A DNA stretch of 64,000 bases, taken from NCBI RefSeq assembly GCF_044647545.1, contig NZ_CP172818.1. One strand, written 5' to 3'. How positions within the stretch are numbered: position 1 is the first letter of the stretch; each line of letters starts with the position of its first letter. The DNA is from Escherichia coli (GTDB lineage Bacteria > Pseudomonadota > Gammaproteobacteria > Enterobacterales > Enterobacteriaceae). The translations under genes were made by a program, and so were the position numbers. The notes below the pieces were generated by a model. That model was not told the DNA's origin. It did no database searches and was given only the letters and a program-made list of their open reading frames with translations. Positions 1,837 through 48,700 of the stretch are shown one piece after another.

Positions 1837-2574
1837 TTAAACTTTTCCGGCGGCTTCGCGCTCTGCGACTTCTTTATCGAGCTCGGCGATTTTTTGTTCC
1901 ATTATCGAACGACAATGGGCAGCCAGCTCACGAACCTGATCTTTGCCATACTGACTGACGTCAATTGGCGGCAGCATTTCGACAATCACCAGACCGTTGT
2001 GCAGTCGATTAAGATTAATCTTATTCGAAGTTGTAGAGACGCACACGGGAATAATCGGGACGCCCGCCGCAATTGCCGCGTGAAATGCCCCGGTTTTGAA
2101 CGGTAGCAGGCCGCGACCACGGCTGCGGGTTCCTTCCGGGAACATCCAGATGGAAATACGGCGTTTTTTGAAGTGATTCACGACTTCCGCAATAGTGCCG
2201 TGAGCTTTAGTGCGATTGTTTCTGTCGATCAATAAGTTGCCGGTTAACCAGTACAACTGCCCGAAGAAGGGGATCCACAGCAAGCTCTTTTTACCTACCG
2301 TCACCGTCGGCGGTTGCACAATGTTCGATGCTGTGACCATGTCATAGTTGTTCTGGTGGTTAGCGATATAGATAGCATTGCCGTAGCTTTCAGCATCCGC
2401 AGGTTTGCGGCACTCAACTTTCAGGCCGAACAGCGGTGCAAGACGACCAAACATATGCCCAAAGGTGGCCACATGTTTCGGGTTACGCGGGCTGAAAAGG
2501 CAGTAAATGGAGCCGAATACACAGACTAAGATGCTGTAAATCACGGTAATAATAAGACGAAAGATATATAGCAT
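1837..2574 (-). CDS. plsC: 1-acyl-sn-glycerol-3-phosphate acyltransferase
   Basis: 245-aa ORF with N-terminal membrane anchor and acyltransferase H-X4-D motif (NHQNNYD). Confidence 0.93.
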   Translation of the reverse strand: MLYIFRLIITVIYSILVCVFGSIYCLFSPRNPKHVATFGHMFGRLAPLFGLKVECRKPADAESYGNAIYIANHQNNYDMVTASNIVQPPTVTVGKKSLLWIPFFGQLYWLTGNLLIDRNNRTKAHGTIAEVVNHFKKRRISIWMFPEGTRSRGRGLLPFKTGAFHAAIAAGVPIIPVCVSTTSNKINLNRLHNGLVIVEMLPPIDVSQYGKDQVRELAAHCRSIMEQKIAELDKEVAEREAAGKV

Positions 2575-2807
2575 AACACCCTCTGAAGGTCTGAGAGACT
2601 GGCATTGTACGTCACCTGAAATCAGGTTAGGGCATTGTTAAAAGCCGCTCTCTGGAAAAGCGTATTGTTAATCGCAACGCATGAATAAACAACGGTTTCA
2701 AGGGAATTTTTATCGTTTCCGGGGGTTGAATACGCTGCCGGATGACGACTTAACGTTTCATCCGGCGTTCCTTGCAAGCGGGAGGAAACAGCGCCCTCCC
2801 CGGCATA

Positions 2808-5066
2808 TTACTCTTCGCTATCACCGCTGCTGGCACGGCGAGGAGAGTCGATCTCAACACGATCGATACGCTGCAAACCGCGCATCAACGTACCGCGGCG
2901 TCCACGTTCGCCAGTGACTTTCTGTAGCTCTTCCGGACGCAGTTTAATTTTGCGTTTCCCAACATGAATGGTCAGCGTGCTTTGCGGCGGCAGAACGTAC
3001 AGTTGCGCCAGACCATCCTCGCCACGCGCGGCTTCTGCCGACGGAATGTTGATAATCTTATTGCCTTTGCCCTTCGACAACTGCGGCAGATCGCTTACCG
3101 GGAACATCAACATACGGCCTGCCTGAGTGATTGCCAGCAGCATATCGGAAGCATCCTCAATCACCACCGGCGGCATAACATGGGCATTTTCCGGTAAGGT
3201 GATCAAAGCCTTACCTGCACGGTTACGCGCCACCAGATCGTTAAAGGTGCAGACGAAACCGTAACCCGCATCGGAAGCCATCAGCAGTTTCTGATCGTCG
3301 CTTTCCATCAGCATATGGTCAACGGTCGCCCCAGGCGGCAACGTTAATTTGCCGGTGAGCGGTTCGCCCTGACCACGCGCCGACGGCAGCGTAATCGGGT
3401 CGATGGCATAGCTACGACCGGTGGAATCAACAAACACTACCGGTTGGTTGCTCTTACCTTTCACCGCCGCTTTGAAGCTATCGCCCGCTTTATAATTCAG
3501 GCCCGGCGCGTCGATATCATGGCCTTTAGCGCTGCGTACCCAGCCCATCTGCGACAGCACAATGGTGACAGGTTCAGACGGCAGCATGTCGTGCTCGCTC
3601 ATCGCTTTCGCTTCTTCGCGTTCCTGCAACGGCGAACGACGTTCGTCACCGTAGGCTTGCGCGTCTGCCTGCAGTTCTTTCTTCAGCAGGTTATTCATTT
3701 TACGCTCGGAAGCCAAAATGCCCTGCAACTGGTCGCGCTCTTTTTCCAGCTCACTCTGCTCACCGCGAATCTTCATCTCTTCCAGTTTGGCAAGATGACG
3801 CAGTTTCAGTTCGAGGATCGCTTCCGCTTGGGTTTCCGTAAGGCCAAACCGCGACATCAGCGCCGGTTTCGGTTCATCTTCATTACGAATGATCTCAATC
3901 ACTTCGTCGATATTGAGAAACGCCACCAGCAAACCTTCGAGGATATGCAGGCGCTTGAGGACTTTCTCCAGACGATAATTCAGTCGGCGGCGCACGGTAT
4001 CGCGGCGGAACACCAGCCATTCGGAGAGGATTTCCAGCAGGTTTTTCACCGCCGGACGACCATCCAGACCGATCATATTGAGGTTAATGCGATAGCTCTT
4101 TTCCAGATCGGTGGTAGCAAAGAGGTGGTTCATCACCTGATCCATATCCACGCGGTTGGAACGCGGCACAATCACCAGACGGGTCGGGTTCTCGTGGTCA
4201 GATTCATCGCGCAGATCGTCAACCATCGGCAGCTTTTTGTTGCGCATTTGCGCAGCAATTTGCTCCAGTACGCGCGCACCTGAAACCTGATGCGGCAATG
4301 CGCTGATAACCACCGCGCCATCTTCTTTCTTCCAAACCGCGCGCATACGCACTGAACCACGTCCGTTCTCGTAGATTTTACGAATCTCGGCGCGCGAAGT
4401 GATAATTTCCGCTTCAGTCGGATAATCCGGCCCCTGCACGATATCCAGCAGCTGATCGAGCGTGGTTTTCGGCTGGTCGATTAATGCGATTGCCGCCTGA
4501 GCCACTTCACGCAGGTTATGCGGTGGAATATCGGTCGCCATGCCGACGGCAATACCGGTGGTGCCGTTAAGCAAAATGTTTGGCAGACGGGCAGGTAGCA
4601 TTTTCGGCTCCTGCAAAGTGCCGTCGAAGTTTGGCACCCAGTCAGCCGTCCCCTGCCCCAGCTCGCTCAATAGCAGCTCGGAATATTTCGACAACCGGGA
4701 TTCGGTGTAACGCATTGCCGCGAACGATTTCGGATCGTCCGGCGCACCCCAGTTCCCCTGACCATCAACCAGCGGATAACGGTAAGAGAACGGCTGCGCC
4801 ATCAGGACCATCGCTTCATAACAGGCAATATCGCCGTGCGGATGGTATTTACCCAGTACGTCACCGACGGTACGGGCCGATTTTTTAAATTTGGCGCTGG
4901 CATTCAGGCCCAGTTCAGACATCGCATACACAATGCGCCGCTGAACGGGTTTCAGACCATCACCAATAAACGGCAACGCACGGTCCATGATCACGTACAT
5001 GGAGTAGTTTAAGTAGGCGTTTTCCGTAAATTCATGTAGCGCAAGGCGCTCTGCCATATCGCTCAT
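2808..5066 (-). CDS. parC: DNA topoisomerase IV subunit A
   Basis: 752-aa ORF; GyrA-family N-terminal domain with QRDR motif [12 protein letters not shown]; codon 80 (4827-4829) encodes Ile. Confidence 0.95.
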
Positions 5067-11347: not shown

Positions 11348-11662
11348 ATGATTACAGTAATCGCAGAAATCCGTACTCGTCCTGGTCAACATCACCGTCA
11401 GGCAGTGTTGGATCAGTTTGCTAAAATCGTTCCAACCGTACTGAAAGAAGAAGGTTGCCACGGCTATGCGCCAATGGTGGATTGCGCTGCTGGCGTGAGT
11501 TTCCAGTCTATGGCACCGGATTCTATCGTGATGATTGAGCAGTGGGAAAGCATCGCGCATCTTGAAGCGCATCTGCAAACCCCGCACATGAAAGCATATA
11601 GCGAAGCCGTAAAAGGTGACGTGCTGGAGATGAATATTCGTATCCTGCAGCCGGGGCTTTAA
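11348..11662 (+). CDS. ygiN: ABM-domain quinol monooxygenase
   Basis: 104-aa ORF 30 bp downstream of mdaB, preceded by aggag SD. Confidence 0.9.
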   Translation: MITVIAEIRTRPGQHHRQAVLDQFAKIVPTVLKEEGCHGYAPMVDCAAGVSFQSMAPDSIVMIEQWESIAHLEAHLQTPHMKAYSEAVKGDVLEMNIRILQPGL

Positions 11663-11709
11663 TCCTGCCTTGTTTGCCCGGCCATCCTGACCGGGCAATG
11701 TTCTTTCCT

Positions 11710-13605
<1,896 letters not shown>

Positions 13606-19787: not shown

Positions 19788-19802
19788 GCTATCCCCTTTT
19801 TT

Positions 19803-19957
19803 CTAACACCACAATACCCCCCCACCACAAAACAAAAAAAACAAAAAAAAAAAAAAAAAAAAAACAAAAAAAACAACCAAAAAAAAATAAACAAAACCAA
19901 AAAAACAAATCCCAATACCCGAGGCACTCGCCATCCGGTTTAAAAAAAAAAAAATTA
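19803..19957. repeat. Low-complexity A/C-rich tract containing an A22 homopolymer (19843-19864) and an A13 run (19942-19954)
   Basis: Between 19811 and 19910 the top strand is almost exclusively A and C; non-coding, sits between the convergent ygiC and ygiD stops. Confidence 0.9.
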
Positions 19958-22805: not shown

Positions 22806-23060
22806 GGTAAAAAAACCTCACTAAAATTATGGTTACCAGAATCAGGGCAGTCTTAGGAGTGGCGGCATATAGCCAAAATAACGTGAGCGGGTCCATGCCC
22901 GACAGAATCGTTACTCTCTCCCATCCGGACTCTAACCGTCGGCCCCGGAATTACACCGGATCTGCTGTCCTTTGAGTTCGCACCCAAAGCGCTCGCGGGC
23001 TTTCAACTGAGTTGATTTACCGCCGGTGGGGAATTTCGCCCCGCCCTGAGAATAAGCGGA
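22806..23060 (-). promoter_or_regulatory. ribB leader containing FMN riboswitch (RFN element; sroG region)
   Basis: Minus-strand leader contains the conserved RFN segments ...agggcggggcgaaattccccaccggcggtaaa...agcccgcgagcg...ccgacggttagagtccggatgggagagagt... directly upstream of ribB. Confidence 0.7.
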
Positions 23061-23178: not shown

Positions 23179-23463
23179 ATGATTGACCCGAAAAAAATTG
23201 AGCAAATCGCTCGCCAGGTTCACGAATCAATGCCTAAAGGAATCAGGGAGTTCGGGGAAGATGTGGAGAAAAAAATCCGCCAAACCCTACAAGCGCAGCT
23301 GACGCGTCTCGATCTGGTAAGCCGCGAAGAATTCGACGTTCAGACGCAAGTCCTGTTACGGACTCGTGAAAAACTGGCGTTACTGGAGCAGCGCATCAGT
23401 GAACTGGATTTGAAAAAACCAACACAAAAACGGGCCAGACGGCCCGTAATATCAGTGTTCTAA
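23179..23463 (+). CDS. ubiK: Ubiquinone biosynthesis accessory factor UbiK (YqiC, BMFP coiled-coil family)
   Basis: 94-aa product from ATG 23179 ([16 protein letters not shown]...), SD caggga upstream; the 114-aa frame is an upstream extension. Confidence 0.8.
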
Positions 23464-24576: not shown

Positions 24577-26238
24577 ATGGATGATATTGTTAATTCTGTG
24601 CCCTCCTGGATGTTTACCGCGATTATTGCCGTATGCATTCTGTTTATTATTGGAATTATTTTCGCCAGGCTCTATCGTCGCGCTTCGGCAGAGCAAGCTT
24701 TTGTTCGTACTGGTTTAGGTGGGCAAAAAGTGGTAATGAGCGGTGGCGCAATCGTGATGCCGATCTTTCATGAAATAATCCCCATCAATATGAATACTCT
24801 GAAGCTGGAAGTCAGCCGCTCAACCATTGATAGCCTGATTACGAAAGATCGTATGCGCGTCGATGTCGTTGTCGCTTTCTTTGTGCGGGTAAAACCGTCA
24901 GTGGAAGGTATTGCCACCGCCGCCCAGACGCTGGGGCAACGCACCCTGTCGCCTGAAGACTTACGTATGTTGGTTGAAGATAAATTTGTCGATGCCCTCC
25001 GTGCAACAGCTGCACAAATGACCATGCATGAGTTACAGGATACCCGCGAGAACTTCGTGCAGGGCGTACAAAATACCGTTGCTGAAGATCTGTCGAAAAA
25101 CGGCCTGGAACTGGAAAGCGTTTCACTTACCAACTTTAACCAGACGTCGAAAGAACATTTCAATCCTAACAACGCCTTTGACGCCGAAGGTTTAACCAAG
25201 CTGACGCAGGAGACGGAGCGCCGTCGTCGCGAACGTAACGAAGTTGAACAGGATGTAGAAGTTGCGGTGCGTGAGAAAAACCGTGATGCACTTTCGCGCA
25301 AGTTGGAGATTGAACAACAAGAAGCGTTTATGACGCTTGAGCAGGAGCAGCAGGTTAAAACCCGTACCGCTGAGCAGAATGCGAAAATTGCGGCTTTTGA
25401 AGCTGAACGTCGTCGTGAAGCAGAGCAGACGCGAATTCTGGCTGAACGACAGATTCAGGAAACGGAAATCGACCGCGAACAGGCCGTCCGTTCCAGAAAA
25501 GTTGAAGCTGAACGTGAAGTTCGCATTAAAGAGATCGAACAGCAGCAGGTCACCGAAATCGCCAACCAGACGAAATCGATCGCTATTGCCGCCAAATCGG
25601 AACAGCAGTCACAAGCGGAAGCGCGTGCCAACCTTGCACTTGCAGAAGCGGTAAGCGCCCAGCAAAACGTAGAAACCACTCGCCAGACCGCAGAAGCCGA
25701 TCGTGCTAAACAAGTTGCCCTAATCGCTGCCGCGCAGGATGCAGAAACCAAAGCGGTTGAACTGACCGTGCGGGCGAAAGCAGAGAAAGAAGCCGCAGAG
25801 ATGCAGGCGGCGGCGATCGTTGAGTTAGCCGAAGCAACACGCAAAAAAGGCCTGGCGGAAGCAGAAGCACAACGTGCGCTGAACGACGCTATCAACGTAC
25901 TTTCTGACGAGCAAACCAGCCTTAAATTCAAACTGGCATTATTGCAGGCGCTGCCTGCGGTAATTGAGAAATCCGTGGAACCAATGAAGTCTATCGACGG
26001 CATCAAAATTATTCAGGTCGATGGGCTGAATCGTGGTGGCGCTACGGGTGATGCAAACACGGGTAATGTGGGGGGCGGAAACCTGGCAGAACAAGCGTTA
26101 TCAGCCGCACTCTCTTACCGCACACAGGCACCGCTGATTGACTCCTTGCTCAATGAAATTGGCGTTTCAGGCGGCTCACTGGCGGCATTGACTTCATCCT
26201 TAAGCTCAACAACTCCCGTCGAAGAAAAAGCAGAGTAA
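24577..26238 (+). CDS. yqiK: Flotillin-like SPFH/band-7 domain protein YqiK
   Basis: 553 aa; N-terminal TM, SPFH domain, long E/A/Q/R-rich coiled coil. Confidence 0.9.
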   Translation: MDDIVNSVPSWMFTAIIAVCILFIIGIIFARLYRRASAEQAFVRTGLGGQKVVMSGGAIVMPIFHEIIPINMNTLKLEVSRSTIDSLITKDRMRVDVVVAFFVRVKPSVEGIATAAQTLGQRTLSPEDLRMLVEDKFVDALRATAAQMTMHELQDTRENFVQGVQNTVAEDLSKNGLELESVSLTNFNQTSKEHFNPNNAFDAEGLTKLTQETERRRRERNEVEQDVEVAVREKNRDALSRKLEIEQQEAFMTLEQEQQVKTRTAEQNAKIAAFEAERRREAEQTRILAERQIQETEIDREQAVRSRKVEAEREVRIKEIEQQQVTEIANQTKSIAIAAKSEQQSQAEARANLALAEAVSAQQNVETTRQTAEADRAKQVALIAAAQDAETKAVELTVRAKAEKEAAEMQAAAIVELAEATRKKGLAEAEAQRALNDAINVLSDEQTSLKFKLALLQALPAVIEKSVEPMKSIDGIKIIQVDGLNRGGATGDANTGNVGGGNLAEQALSAALSYRTQAPLIDSLLNEIGVSGGSLAALTSSLSSTTPVEEKAE

Positions 26239-26253
26239 ACCCTCTTCTATGAA

Positions 26254-26288
26254 TAATCCCTGGCCCAAAAAGCCGGGGATTTTTTATA
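26254..26288 (+). terminator. Intrinsic terminator downstream of yqiK
   Basis: Hairpin aatccctggc / gccggggatt followed by tttttat. Confidence 0.6.
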
Positions 26289-26399
26289 TCTGCGTTCCGC
26301 TAAAAGGTGCAAATGATCAGGCTGTTGCAGCATTTTGCGTGACTGCTCGGGGAAGGCAAAACTGCCTCTGGGAAAGCGTTGCGCGGAGTCCGGCGCTCA

Positions 26400-26545
26400 T
26401 CAACAATCGGGGAGTCAGCAAGGGGCTGAAACGGGAAAGCCCCTCCCGAGGAAGGGGCCTTACAGAAGGAAAGGGTTATGATGAAGCTCGTCATCATACT
26501 GATTGTGTTGTTACTTGTAAGTTTCGCCACTTATTAACAGCCAAT
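26400..26545 (-). ncRNA. Sib-family antisense sRNA (type I antitoxin) opposite the ibs toxin ORF
   Basis: Minus strand reads ataagtggcgaaacttacaagtaacaacacaatcagtatgatgacgagcttcatcataaccctttcc...ggccccttcctcgggaggggctttcccgtttcagcccctt, matching the Sib sRNA pattern as recalled; ends are approximate. Confidence 0.6.
26478..26537 (+). CDS. Ibs-family type I toxin, 19-aa hydrophobic peptide
   Basis: atg atg aag ctc gtc atc ata ctg att gtg ttg tta ctt gta agt ttc gcc act tat taa = MMKLVIILIVLLLVSFATY, preceded by SD gaaggaaaggg; too short for the 60-aa ORF track. Confidence 0.7.
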   Translation: MMKLVIILIVLLLVSFATY

Positions 26546-26659
26546 CAGAGGGGGAGAAATCCTCCCTCACCCTTGTTCCTTTACTTGGGGTAGGTTGAAA
26601 AAACAACAGCGTCAATAGGCCTGCCAGGTTCGAAGCGAGATCTGTGAAGCGCTTTCCGG

Positions 26660-28093
26660 TTAGCCTTTTTTATCCTGTTGGATCTTCTTGATAATGTTAG
26701 TGGTCGAGCAACCGTCTTCAAAGTTGAGCACCAGCACTTCGCCACCATTGGCCCAGACTTCTTTACTCCCGGCAATCTCTTCTGGTTTATAGTCGCCGCC
26801 TTTCACCAGCAGATCTGGCAGGATCCCGGCAATCAAGCGCTGCGGCGTGTCTTCTTCAAACGACACCACCCAGTCGACCGCTTCCAGTGCGCCCAGCACA
26901 ATCATACGCTGTTCGAGCGGGTTAACGGGGCGGGAATCCCCTTTCAGCCGTTTGGTGGAGGCATCGCTGTTGACGGCGACAATCAAACGGTCACCCAGCT
27001 TGCGGGCATTTGCCAGATAAGAGACGTGTCCGGCGTGCAGGATGTCAAAGACGCCATTGGTCATCACCACTTTTTCACCGCGTTTACGCGCTGCCGCTAC
27101 AGCAAACTTCAGTTCCTCTTCGGTCATCACACCAAAGCCGGTATCTGCACGTCCACGTACTGCGTTTTCCAGCTCGATCGGCGAAACCGGGGATGTCCCC
27201 AGTTTGCCGACCACCACACCAGCCGCCGCATTGGCAAAGAAGCAGGCTTCTTCCAGCGAATTACCCGCTGCCAGCGTTGCCGCCAGGACACCAATCACCG
27301 TGTCGCCCGCACCGGTAACGTCATACACTTCCTGCGCCTGGGTTGGCATATGCAGCGGCGCTTTACCCGGTTGCAGCAGCGACATACCCTGTTCGGAACG
27401 GGTCACTAACAGAGCCGAGAGTTCGTAATCGGCAATCAGTTTCATGCCGCGCTCAACAATCTCTTCTTCGGTTTTACATTTACCGACAACAGCTTCAAAT
27501 TCCGAGAGATTCGGCGTTAACAGCGTAGCGCCGCGGTAGCGCTCAAAATCGGTACCTTTTGGATCAATCAGCACCGGAACACCCGCTTTACGCGCCAGTT
27601 GGATCATCTGCTGTACGCTTGCCAGCGCACCTTTGGCGTAGTCAGAAAGCACCAGCGCGCCAATCGAACTCAGCGCCTGATTAATCCGTTCGTGCAGCGG
27701 CTGCGGATCAACACCTTCGAAACCTTCTTCAAAATCCAGACGAATCAGCTGTTGGTTGCGGGAAAGCACCCGTAATTTGGTGATGGTCGGATGCGTCGGT
27801 ACAGAAACGAAGTCGCATTTGACGTTGACGTCGGCCAGAGATTTACTCAGCGCGCGCGCCGCATCGTCAATGCCCGTTAACCCGACCAGGCGTGCATTAG
27901 CACCGAGAGAAGCGATATTCATCGCCACGTTAGCCGCGCCGCCCGGACGTTCTTCGATGGTATTTACTTTAACCACGGGCACCGGCGCTTCCGGCGAGAT
28001 ACGGCTGGTGGGACCGTACCAGTAACGATCCAGCATCACATCACCAACCACCATCACTCCTGCACGTTCAAACTCTGGCAGCGTTACTTTCAT
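26660..28093 (-). CDS. hldE: Bifunctional heptose 7-phosphate kinase / heptose 1-phosphate adenylyltransferase
   Basis: 477-aa ORF; N-terminal ribokinase-like and C-terminal cytidylyltransferase-like domains. Confidence 0.95.
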
Positions 28094-34469: not shown

Positions 34470-34530
34470 CTAAAAACAGAAATCCCTAGGTCGGATAAGA
34501 CGCACAAGCGTATCCGACACTATTCCTCAA

Positions 34531-46820: not shown

Positions 46821-46896
46821 GGCCCCTTAGCTCAGTGGTTAGAGCAGGCGACTCATAATCGCTTGGTCGCTGGTTCAAGTCCAGCAGGGGCCACCA
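46821..46896 (+). tRNA. ileX: tRNA-Ile (anticodon CAU, lysidine-modified; ileX-type)
   Basis: 76-nt cloverleaf ggcccctta...ggggcc-a-CCA; anticodon loop ctCATaa; position after mug as in K-12. Confidence 0.85.
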
Positions 46897-46903
46897 GATA
46901 TAG

Positions 46904-46940
46904 CAAAGGCTGACGAGAAATCGTCAGCCTTTTTCTTTTT
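46904..46940 (+). terminator. Intrinsic terminator downstream of ileX
   Basis: Hairpin ggctgacga gaaa tcgtcagcc followed by tttttcttttt. Confidence 0.75.
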
Positions 46941-46949
46941 ATATATCAG

Positions 46950-47714
46950 TTACTTTGCGTGCCAGTAAGCCGCTGCACGTACCCGCTGTGGGTCATACTG
47001 TTCCGCTTCAAAGCGGCGGCTTAAATTCTTAACGACTTTGCCTTCGCCGGTTATCCAGATGAAGTAATCATCGGCAGGGATTTGCATCTGCGCCAGACGC
47101 GCATCTACCGCCTGCTCATCATGCGCCAGCCATTCGATATTAAAACCATCAAGGTGCGCGAGATAATCCTGGCAGGCGTGATCCCGCACGCTAACCAGTG
47201 CGCTAACTTGCGGTTTAACAGCAAGTTTGCTCAACGTTTCCAGGCGGCGGCGCAGTGCGGGCATTCCGGATTCATCGCAGACATACAGCTGATACGCGTA
47301 ATCCTCTGGCACCACCAGCGAACCGCGCGGACCTGCCACCGTGAGTTTATCGCCCGGTTGCGCCTGCATTGCCCAGCTGCTGGCGACGCCACCGTCGTGA
47401 ATAAAGAAATCAATCGCCAGTTCATGGCGTAGTTCGTCATACAGCGGCGTATAGTCACGCGACGGTGGGCGTGGTCCTTCCGGCCAGACGATGCCCTCTT
47501 CCGTTACCGTTGGCGGCACAAAGTGAGCATCAGATTGAGGAAAGAAGAGTTTGCTGTGATCGTCAAAGCCGCGCGATGTAAAACCGTCCAGCGCCTCGCC
47601 GCCAAGGACAATGCGCTGAAAACCGGCGCTAATACGCTCAGCGCGTAGCACAGTCAATTCACGGAAGCGCAGATCATTGCGAACGCGCTGCGGGTAGCGG
47701 GGGGAGTTATTCAT
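46950..47714 (-). CDS. yqjH: NADPH-dependent ferric-chelate (siderophore) reductase
   Basis: 254-aa ORF, FAD-binding siderophore-interacting family. Confidence 0.9.
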   Translation of the reverse strand: MNNSPRYPQRVRNDLRFRELTVLRAERISAGFQRIVLGGEALDGFTSRGFDDHSKLFFPQSDAHFVPPTVTEEGIVWPEGPRPPSRDYTPLYDELRHELAIDFFIHDGGVASSWAMQAQPGDKLTVAGPRGSLVVPEDYAYQLYVCDESGMPALRRRLETLSKLAVKPQVSALVSVRDHACQDYLAHLDGFNIEWLAHDEQAVDARLAQMQIPADDYFIWITGEGKVVKNLSRRFEAEQYDPQRVRAAAYWHAK

Positions 47715-47764
47715 TGTTATCGCCTTCGTGATAGTAATCAGATATATCTAAATAAATTTCGCAA

Positions 47765-47790
47765 ATGATAATGATTGTTAATCATGATAA
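47765..47790. promoter_or_regulatory. Fur box in the yqjH-yqjI divergent promoter region
   Basis: tgataatgattgttaatcatgataa closely matches the Fur consensus gataatgataatcattatc. Confidence 0.7.
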
Positions 47791-47854
47791 ATGCAAGCGA
47801 TTTGTAGAACTGATATATCTGAAGTATGAGAAGACATTCAGCGTCGTAGCAAGG

Positions 47855-47890
47855 CTGCCGGATGCGGCGTGAACGAATTATCCGGCCTGG
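47855..47890. repeat. REP-like palindromic element
   Basis: gctgccggatgcggcgtgaacgaattatccggcctgg resembles enterobacterial REP sequences. Confidence 0.45.
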
Positions 47891-47990
47891 ATGTGAGGTG
47901 TATTCACGTTTAAAAATCATTTTTATACTTGCAAAAGCGCTCATATCAGATATAAATTAGATATATCTAATTAAGCAAAAGGAGGCTGAT

Positions 47991-48614
47991 ATGAGCCATC
48001 ATCACGAAGGGTGTTGTAAACATGAAGGCCAGCCACGCCATGAAGGCTGCTGCAAAGGTGAGAAGTCAGAACATGAGCACTGCGGACACGGTCACCAGCA
48101 TGAACACGGTCAATGCTGCGGTGGTCGCCACGGTCGCGGCGGCGGTCGTCGGCAGCGTTTCTTTGGTCACGGTGAATTGCGTCTGGTGATTCTGGATATT
48201 CTCTCGCGCGATGACAGCCACGGTTACGAATTGATTAAAGCGATTGAGAATCTAACCCAGGGGAATTACACCCCAAGCCCGGGCGTCATCTACCCAACGC
48301 TGGATTTTCTGCAGGAGCAGTCGCTGATTACCATCCGCGAAGAGGAAGGTGGTAAGAAGCAGATTGCACTGACCGAACAGGGCGCGCAGTGGCTGGAAGA
48401 AAACCGCGAACAGGTGGAGATGATCGAAGAACGCATCAAAGCGCGTTGCGTTGGTGCTGCACTCCGCCAGAACCCGCAAATGAAGCGGGCGCTGGATAAT
48501 TTTAAAGCGGTGCTGGATTTACGCGTCAACCAGAGCGATATCACTGATGCACAAATAAAAAAGATCATTGCGGTGATCGACCGCGCCGCTTTTGATATTA
48601 CCCAACTGGATTAA
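47991..48614 (+). CDS. yqjI: PadR-family metal-responsive transcriptional repressor YqjI
   Basis: 207 aa; His/Cys/Gly-rich N-terminus (MSHHHEGCCKHEG...HEHCGHGHQHEHGQCCGG), PadR winged-helix. Confidence 0.9.
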   Translation: MSHHHEGCCKHEGQPRHEGCCKGEKSEHEHCGHGHQHEHGQCCGGRHGRGGGRRQRFFGHGELRLVILDILSRDDSHGYELIKAIENLTQGNYTPSPGVIYPTLDFLQEQSLITIREEEGGKKQIALTEQGAQWLEENREQVEMIEERIKARCVGAALRQNPQMKRALDNFKAVLDLRVNQSDITDAQIKKIIAVIDRAAFDITQLD

Positions 48615-48700
48615 CGGATGCGGCGTACCCCTACCCCCCCCGTAGGCCTGATAAGATGCGCCAGCATCGCATCAGGCATTGTGCTCCAACCGCCGGATCC
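48615..48700. repeat. REP element(s) between convergent yqjI and aer
   Basis: cggatgcggcgta... and gtaggcctgataagatgcgccagcatcgcatcaggc palindromes typical of REP/BIME. Confidence 0.7.

Follow-up and report, generated by a model that had tools for sequence, protein, structure and literature searches.

A single D-type Sib/Ibs toxin-antitoxin unit in the yqiK-hldE spacer of an ST648-like Escherichia coli and a 4-bp insertion in its sib promoter

The yqiK-hldE spacer of the window (the whole 64-kb stretch of E. coli DNA that was analysed) almost certainly carries one complete unit of the Sib/Ibs repeat, a type I toxin-antitoxin family, at the site which is occupied by sibD and sibE in K-12. This identity follows from a match to the SIB_RNA covariance model, a match to the Ibs_toxin profile, the RefSeq label of the identical ORF in a relative, the synteny with K-12 and a predicted fold like that of SibD. 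The full explanation of the locus, a single D-type Sib/Ibs unit which probably originated by collapse and has a split -10 in its sib promoter, is put forward with high confidence. The locus is already known: it belongs to the Sib/Ibs family, is annotated, and has a D-type core and the single-copy layout, which is a common one.

Identity and content of the Sib/Ibs unit

The spacer between yqiK and hldE measured 421 bp in the window and aligned end to end with one K-12 repeat unit of ~377 bp at a mean column identity of ~90%. The terminator-like hairpin which opens the unit downstream of yqiK had a counterpart at the head of both K-12 repeat units. The Rfam model RF00113 (SIB_RNA; gathering score 56) matched the minus strand at 26463-26615 with 126.8 bits (E 1.3e-25) over the full model (positions 1-147 of 147); compared to the model consensus, the sequence had 4 nt inserted at one place and 1 nt deleted at another. 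This was the sole SIB match in the 64-kb window. The Sib antisense RNA that the preliminary description had placed on the strand opposite to a small hydrophobic ORF was thus confirmed far over the gathering score. K-12 MG1655 has sibD/ibsD and sibE/ibsE in a yqiK-hldE spacer of 794 bp, and the K-12 annotation together with the alignments agreed with the earlier statement that K-12 carries two tandem copies and the window one. No remnant of a second repeat unit was found in the 421-bp spacer with the SIB_RNA model scan and the alignments to K-12. The interval first delimited, 26400-26545, did enclose the ibs -10, the start of transcription and the ORF, but ended short of the Sib gene's 5' third. 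Two longer ORFs across the spacer (114 aa on the plus strand and 76 aa on the minus strand) were treated as spurious since they overlap conserved RNA genes. The features of the locus are listed in Table 1.

Table 1. Features of the yqiK-hldE spacer and its flanking genes in the window (positions are those of the window)
Feature	Position	Strand	Details and basis
yqiK (flotillin family), left flank	24577-26238	+	553-aa ORF; named yqiK in FDAARGOS_497 and K-12
Terminator-like hairpin and T-run 3' of yqiK	26255-26281	+	Terminator scan; opens the ~377-bp Sib/Ibs repeat unit
ibs promoter	26379-26407	+	-35 TTGCGC 26379-26384; 17-bp spacer; -10 AACAAT 26402-26407
ibs mRNA, 161 nt	26414-26574	+	Homology to the 163-nt ibsD mRNA
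Shine-Dalgarno AGGAAAGGG	26467-26475	+	Read from the sequence; 2 nt 5' of ATG; kept in all aligned copies
ibs ORF, 19 codons, MMKLVIILIVLLLVSFATY	26478-26537	+	Translation; Pfam Ibs_toxin match
G/C hairpin	26548-26568	both	Plus strand: 3' hairpin of ibs mRNA; minus strand: first Sib hairpin
Sib antitoxin RNA body, 143 nt, D-type	26576-26434	-	Ends from the K-12 sibD annotation via alignment
TRD1-equivalent, Sib +46 to +68	26509-26531	-	Antisense to the ibs ORF, 3' part
TRD2-equivalent, Sib +99 to +115	26462-26478	-	Antisense to the ibs Shine-Dalgarno and start codon
Sib terminator hairpin	26437-26461	-	Fold; homologous to the SibD 3' hairpin
sib promoter	26577-26615	-	-35 TTGACG 26610-26615; 17-nt spacer 26593-26609; split -10; AAAGGA; +1A 26576
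GGGG insertion (CCCC on the sib strand), private to the window	26587-26590	.	Alignment with FDAARGOS_497
hldE, right flank	26660-28093	-	477-aa ORF; annotation in relatives; transcribed towards sib

The assignment of the 19-codon ORF to the Ibs family held exactly at the position given for it, with the Pfam profile PF13956 (Ibs_toxin) matched end to end. The match reached 40.5 bits (E 2.4e-10; cut-off 27 bits) and took in all 19 profile positions (1-19), the query being the peptide plus one in-frame upstream codon to reach the 20-aa minimum query. A search of the peptide against the NCBIfam profiles gave no match to an Ibs model and only an irrelevant one to RC1041 (E 0.25). The peptide was identical to K-12 IbsD at 18/19 residues and to IbsE at 16/19, and RefSeq labels the identical ORF in FDAARGOS_497 as Ibs family toxin (WP_100249717.1). 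It retains Leu11, and has Lys3 at the position where Salmonella IbsA has His3. From the 18/19 identity with IbsD, we infer that the window peptide would be toxic and repressed by its cognate Sib. That the two features of the pair arose from a chance ORF and a chance antisense likeness has a negligible probability; the small size of the ORF is the single point in its favour, and the E values of both models and the K-12 alignment rule it out.

Upstream of the ORF, the good Shine-Dalgarno reported before was recovered as a purine-rich motif. The ibs promoter hexamers were assigned from the sequence, 5' of the site that corresponds by homology to the ibsD +1, which was mapped by primer extension by Han et al. 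2010 (PMC2943612). The -10 AACAAT was the same as in the K-12 D and E copies and the -35 the same as in the E copy. The promoter -10, the +1-homologous position, the Shine-Dalgarno and the ibs ORF were conserved with both K-12 ibsD and ibsE. The ends of the ibs mRNA were taken from the primers ERI-T7-ibsD and ibsD+163 (PMC2943612) and transferred via the alignment. In the G/C hairpin, the G-run at 26550-26554 was G5 compared to G6 in the closest relatives as aligned with FDAARGOS_497; the G5 variant was also present in strain 463, and in the fold it removes a bulge from the first Sib hairpin.

The Sib body was 95.9% identical to SibD and 89.6% to SibE. It contains the whole ibs ORF and its Shine-Dalgarno and overlaps the inferred ibs mRNA by 141 nt, while the sib promoter extends by homology to 26615. 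The minimum-free-energy fold of the body (-57.2 kcal/mol, z = -4.9) had the architecture of K-12 SibD: a closing P1 stem and three hairpins, then the CCUUCUGU segment left single-stranded, and a hairpin for the terminator. With the domain definitions and TRD positions of Han et al. 2010 (PMC2943612), the TRD1-equivalent differed from that of K-12 SibD at three positions (26516, 26528 and 26529), all of them common to the ST648-like relatives. The TRD2-equivalent, which is the J1/7 segment in the family architecture, was single-stranded in the fold and had the SibD type CCUUCUGU, unlike the SibE type CCUUAUAC.

Sib RNAs are constitutive and each represses only its cognate ibs mRNA via TRD1 and TRD2, from which pairing spreads into the flanks (PMC2943612), and the Sib-ibs duplex is a substrate of RNase III (PMC4147584). 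Ibs peptides, hydrophobic and 18-19 residues long, are lethal or growth-arresting when overproduced; toxicity and repression by the cognate Sib were shown for K-12 IbsC and IbsD (PMC2943612), and likewise for Salmonella IbsA. The latter reduces both ATP and membrane potential and binds two subunits of Fo, a and b, its Leu11 being needed for activity and its His3 for AtpF binding. By homology, the plus-strand ibs mRNA of ~161 nt would encode a hydrophobic inner-membrane peptide of 19 residues which, when overproduced, would depolarise the membrane and lower ATP. The minus-strand Sib of ~143 nt, perfectly complementary to the ibs ORF and ribosome-binding site, would meet this mRNA through the single-stranded TRD1 at the 3' part of the ORF and TRD2 at the Shine-Dalgarno and start codon. 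Their pairing is expected to block translation and lead to RNase III-dependent decay.

Core type and origin of the single copy

K-12 and E. albertii share the same order of copies, with the IbsD-type on the yqiK side and the IbsE-type on the hldE side. A total of 11 sites separated D from E in both, all of them in the Sib/ibs overlap (26462-26568). At these sites the window had the D state at eight, the E state at one and a private state at two; on this comparison, the core kept in the window is D-type. The single copies of strain 463 and of SCPM-O-B-8794, a divergent genome labelled E. coli, had an E-type core, and that of strain 118UI was mixed, with an E-type TRD2 joined to a D-type ORF. 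The single copy of OkiPb01709 showed 15 D sites followed by 18 E sites and is a clean D|E recombinant, a pattern which, read from the aligned sites, is what a single unequal crossover within a pair like that of K-12 leaves behind.

The single-copy arrangement was present in 1,325 of 5,426 complete E. coli genomes (24%), counted as genomes that match without a break a 701-bp segment reaching from the end of yqiK across the single unit to the end of hldE. The best match in all other genomes was confined to the sibE-hldE part, which is what two copies would give. Single-copy yqiK-hldE spacers of other E. coli measured 417-421 bp and carried an annotated Ibs family toxin. A D-type core adjoining hldE was found in about 364 genomes, of which 117 were at ≥99% identity to the window haplotype and 247 at 95-99%. 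The lineage of the window was close to FDAARGOS_497, MS6198, ECONIH1 and the strain named ST648 (99.9% identity over 24 kb). ST648 belongs to phylogroup F. E. albertii had two copies at the site, and one Sib next to hldE was present in Citrobacter sp. FP75, in C. youngae and in SCPM-O-B-8794.

The D/E order of E. albertii, the occurrence of single copies with either core and the recombinant of OkiPb01709 make it probable that the single copy is what was left when recombination between the ~377-bp repeats collapsed an older D/E tandem. The D/E pair appears older than E. coli, and collapse to a single copy appears to have happened more than once in this species. For the haplotype of the window itself the collapse is less certain because its D/E states upstream of the core were interleaved, without a single switch point, and because one hldE-side copy is found in Citrobacter. 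The same two observations, together with the one hldE-side Sib of SCPM-O-B-8794, speak for the alternative in which a single copy is ancestral in the window lineage and the K-12 D/E pair is a later duplication. This alternative is unlikely, since both core types are present in E. albertii in the K-12 order with the 11 shared diagnostic sites, since D-core (window, 118UI) and E-core (463, OkiPb01709) single copies cannot all be one ancestral copy, and since the allele of OkiPb01709 derives cleanly by recombination from a pair like that of K-12. Upstream of the core, the E. albertii copies were closer to each other than to their K-12 counterparts, which suggests that the repeat flanks were homogenised while the specificity cores stayed distinct. 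That both species, E. coli and E. albertii, have conserved the D and the E core fits selection against cross-reaction between the two Sib RNAs, alongside repeated collapse.

With the single-copy state common and the peptide annotated in RefSeq, the locus itself changes nothing in what is known of the family. RefSeq puts the name ibsE on many single copies at the yqiK-hldE site, and this pipeline label is wrong for D-core alleles like that of the window.

The sib promoter and the GGGG insertion

The consensus promoter scan of the window gave no sib promoter at 26577-26615, with the -35 and the spacer intact; TTGACG-17-TAAAGT or TAGAGT, the form of the sigma-70 promoter that Sib RNAs have of their own, was found in FDAARGOS_497 and in both K-12 copies. 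The -10 of the window was split into TA (26591-26592), CCCC and AAGT (26583-26586) by the GGGG insertion, which falls within the interval matching the 35-bp minimal sibD promoter (-35 to -1) that was experimentally sufficient for transcription (PMC12956327). Among 52 promoter-to-+1 intervals, that of the window was 27 nt and the other 51 were 23 nt with TAAAGT or TAGAGT, the metagenome loci among them having been retrieved by the intact hexamer and hence not being independent evidence. A 39-mer across the insertion had no match in the 5,426 complete E. coli genomes. A 27-mer with the insertion was found in no metagenome contig, and a 23-mer without it in 32 stretches. The insertion lies outside both RNA bodies, and the ibs promoter, the ORF, the hairpin and the Sib body are intact.

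If the insertion were real, transcription of Sib from its own promoter would be expected to drop strongly. The remaining antisense cover could come from residual activity of the damaged promoter or from read-through of hldE, the latter being possible because the terminator scan found no minus-strand terminator-like site between hldE and sib. An internal promoter-like match, CTTACA-17-TATGAT at 26521-26493 in the promoter scan, could also supply compensating antisense RNA. A new sib promoter made by the insertion itself was looked for by eye; the best candidate, TTGTTT-17-TAAAGG (3/6 and 3/6, with a -10 lacking the final T), was unconvincing.

Comparison of the window with FDAARGOS_497 bears on whether the insertion is genuine. 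From 11714 to 46938 (~35 kb) there was no base substitution between the two, and every difference was an indel or filler. At the Sib locus the differences were two indels only, G5 for G6 and the GGGG insertion. A stretch of 160 bp at 19795-19954, A/C-rich and of low complexity with A22, A13 and A9 runs, replaced the 3.7-kb assT-dsbL-dsbI island of the relatives and had no match in any E. coli genome searched. In addition, the 3' end of ubiK was truncated, its last ~24 codons being replaced by a 12-nt A-rich patch, and small deletions were present in a REP-like spacer at 34471-34510. Odd indels without substitutions are unlike the usual natural divergence, and for this reason an artefact or edit in the window sequence is considered no less likely than a mutation in the organism.

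Three accounts of the promoter were weighed. That the module is normal and fully functional, as in its ST648-like relatives, with the GGGG insertion and the one-G deletion being sequence errors or edits, is an evenly balanced proposition. It draws on the 35 kb with indels or fillers and no substitutions, on the A22-containing stretch and the A-rich ubiK patch, and on the 117 complete genomes with the window haplotype, in which TAAAGT is intact and the insertion absent. Against it, the GGGG is not a homopolymer-length error, since the relatives have no G-run at the insertion site, and the window is otherwise error-free over 35 kb. Nor was the GGGG copied from any paralogue in the 5,426 genomes, so that a mix-up of repeat copies at the assembly stage is no explanation for it; the lack of any genome match for the 39-mer likewise argues against a paralogue as donor, be it through gene conversion or through mis-polishing. 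In FDAARGOS_497, the stretch where coordinate offset placed the sibC paralogue, as a candidate donor, was a capsule and genomic island with no ibs gene.

An insertion that is real and weakens Sib expression is a tentative reading of the sequence, and doubt grows for the fuller proposal of a natural knock-down, in which an ST648-like E. coli recently gained the 4 bp, lost the sib -10 by this and kept an intact ibs with its promoter. Under such a knock-down, the rest of the genome would offer no Sib of close match, and Ibs would be derepressed in part or, alternatively, kept in check only by antisense transcription reading through from hldE. The strain would then be a natural experiment on a chromosomal type I antitoxin without its promoter. 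A module in decay, with the antitoxin promoter broken and the pair a non-functional relic on its way to loss, is improbable. The split -10, the lost consensus promoter match and an Rfam score below the 142-147 bits of intact copies elsewhere would agree with decay, but the ibs promoter, Shine-Dalgarno, ORF, 3' hairpin, Sib body and terminator are all intact, other inactivating changes are absent, and loss of the antitoxin before the toxin would be the harmful order.

Comparison with known Sib/Ibs and other type I systems

Compared to K-12 sibD/ibsD (b4447/b4664), the window unit has the same yqiK-hldE site, TRD2, fold, terminator and, except for the insertion, promoter layout. It differs in standing alone and in being joined directly to the hldE-side flank, which in K-12 is that of sibE. 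The peptide has Thr18 for the Ala18 of IbsD, TRD1 has two synonymous changes, the first hairpin has G5 instead of G6 and the -10 contains the 4-bp insertion. With K-12 sibE/ibsE (b4611/b4666) the unit shares its position relative to hldE, the right-hand flank, Thr18 and the ibs -35 hexamer, but its core is not E-type. The alleles of FDAARGOS_497, MS6198 and the strain named ST648 were the same as that of the window except for the two indels. The single-copy alleles of 463 and OkiPb01709 (E-type core) and of 118UI (mixed core) differed from the window, and none had the -10 insertion.

The ibsA/sibA pair of Salmonella Typhimurium similarly consists of a 19-aa Ibs toxin and a fully overlapping Sib antisense RNA, but is a different paralogue at a different locus. 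A Salmonella mutant with the sibA -35 and -10 substituted was viable, with SibA undetectable and ibsA mRNA raised in low Mg2+. This engineered mutant is the laboratory counterpart of what the window insertion would do, and its viability indicates that a real sib lesion could be tolerated and need not give a strong phenotype.

The ldr/rdl, hok/sok and tisB/istR-1 systems as well as shoB/ohsC resemble Sib/Ibs in pairing a small hydrophobic membrane toxin with an antisense RNA which silences its mRNA, and ldr/rdl also occurs as tandem repeats within one spacer, as sibD/sibE do. The Sib antisense RNA covers the complete ibs ORF together with its ribosome-binding site in cis, unlike the RNAs of these other systems, which overlap in part at the 5' or 3' side or are divergent and act in trans.

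Differences from FDAARGOS_497 and other relatives

The window was compared with FDAARGOS_497, a close ST648-like relative, and coordinates of all features are collected in the table below. The 3' end of ubiK was found to be replaced, with TTTGAAAAAACC in place of the final ~24 codons, and the predicted UbiK of the window loses its normal C-terminus while the reading frame runs to a later stop. This replacement was private to the window. Between ygiC and ygiD, a low-complexity, A/C-rich stretch with runs of A22, A13 and A9 was present, and it had zero matches among complete E. coli genomes. The exact same site is occupied by a 3.7-kb assT-dsbL-dsbI island in the closest relatives and by a 37-bp spacer in K-12. 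The stretch looks like an artefact of assembly, gap-filling or editing.

In addition, the window did not have a 7.3-kb cluster which FDAARGOS_497 carries at the same point. Compared with FDAARGOS_497, the cca-bacA spacer showed several small deletions, together removing ~20 bp, around a REP-like palindrome. Finally, the nfeF/nfeR region differed from FDAARGOS_497 by ~70 substitutions as well as indels. No substitutions were found upstream of 46939, and the abrupt shift in identity directly after the tRNA gene suggests a recombination boundary just past this gene.

Features of the window and of the two-copy repeat loci compared
Feature	Sequence	Coordinates	Strand	Details
7.3-kb cluster missing	window	11660-11714		MurR/RpiR regulator, iron-siderophore ABC transporter, TonB-dependent receptor in FDAARGOS_497
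ygiC-ygiD stretch	window	19795-19954		
FMN riboswitch	window	22909-23057	-	upstream of ribB; Rfam RF00050, 120.9 bits
ubiK 3'-end replacement	window	23408-23419		
Promoter-like match	window	26493-26521	-	CTTACA-17-TATGAT
cca-bacA deletions	window	34471-34510		
tRNA gene	window	46821-46893	+	CAU anticodon loop; Rfam, 73.1 bits
nfeF/nfeR region	window	46939-48630		
Two-copy repeat locus	E. albertii (L008)	3935-4728		
Two-copy repeat locus	K-12 (L001)	2527-3320		

RNA elements and the promoter-like match inside the Sib gene

The FMN riboswitch was ordinary and its annotation was also present in relatives. The FDAARGOS_497 homologue of the tRNA gene was annotated as tRNA-Ile. A promoter-like match inside the Sib gene, antisense to the ibs Ile-Ile codons, was found in the window and in relatives, and its K-12 sibE counterpart reads TTAACA-16-TATGAT (10/12). 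The internal match either could drive a 5'-truncated antisense RNA that spans the start of ibs or may have arisen by chance.

Naming and evolution of the D and E units

Single copies at the yqiK-hldE site, where any RefSeq name was assigned, were always named ibsE, and single copies with a D core, such as those of FDAARGOS_497 and another E. coli strain, 118UI, had no gene name in RefSeq. Naming by position at this site would mislabel D-core alleles.

Upstream of the core, the two repeat units were alike within each of the two species compared, E. albertii and E. coli (K-12). Within the Sib/ibs core, the D and E identities were maintained between K-12 and E. albertii. The combination of flanks alike within species and D and E cores shared across species suggests that the flanks are under concerted evolution and that selection holds the specificity determinants apart.
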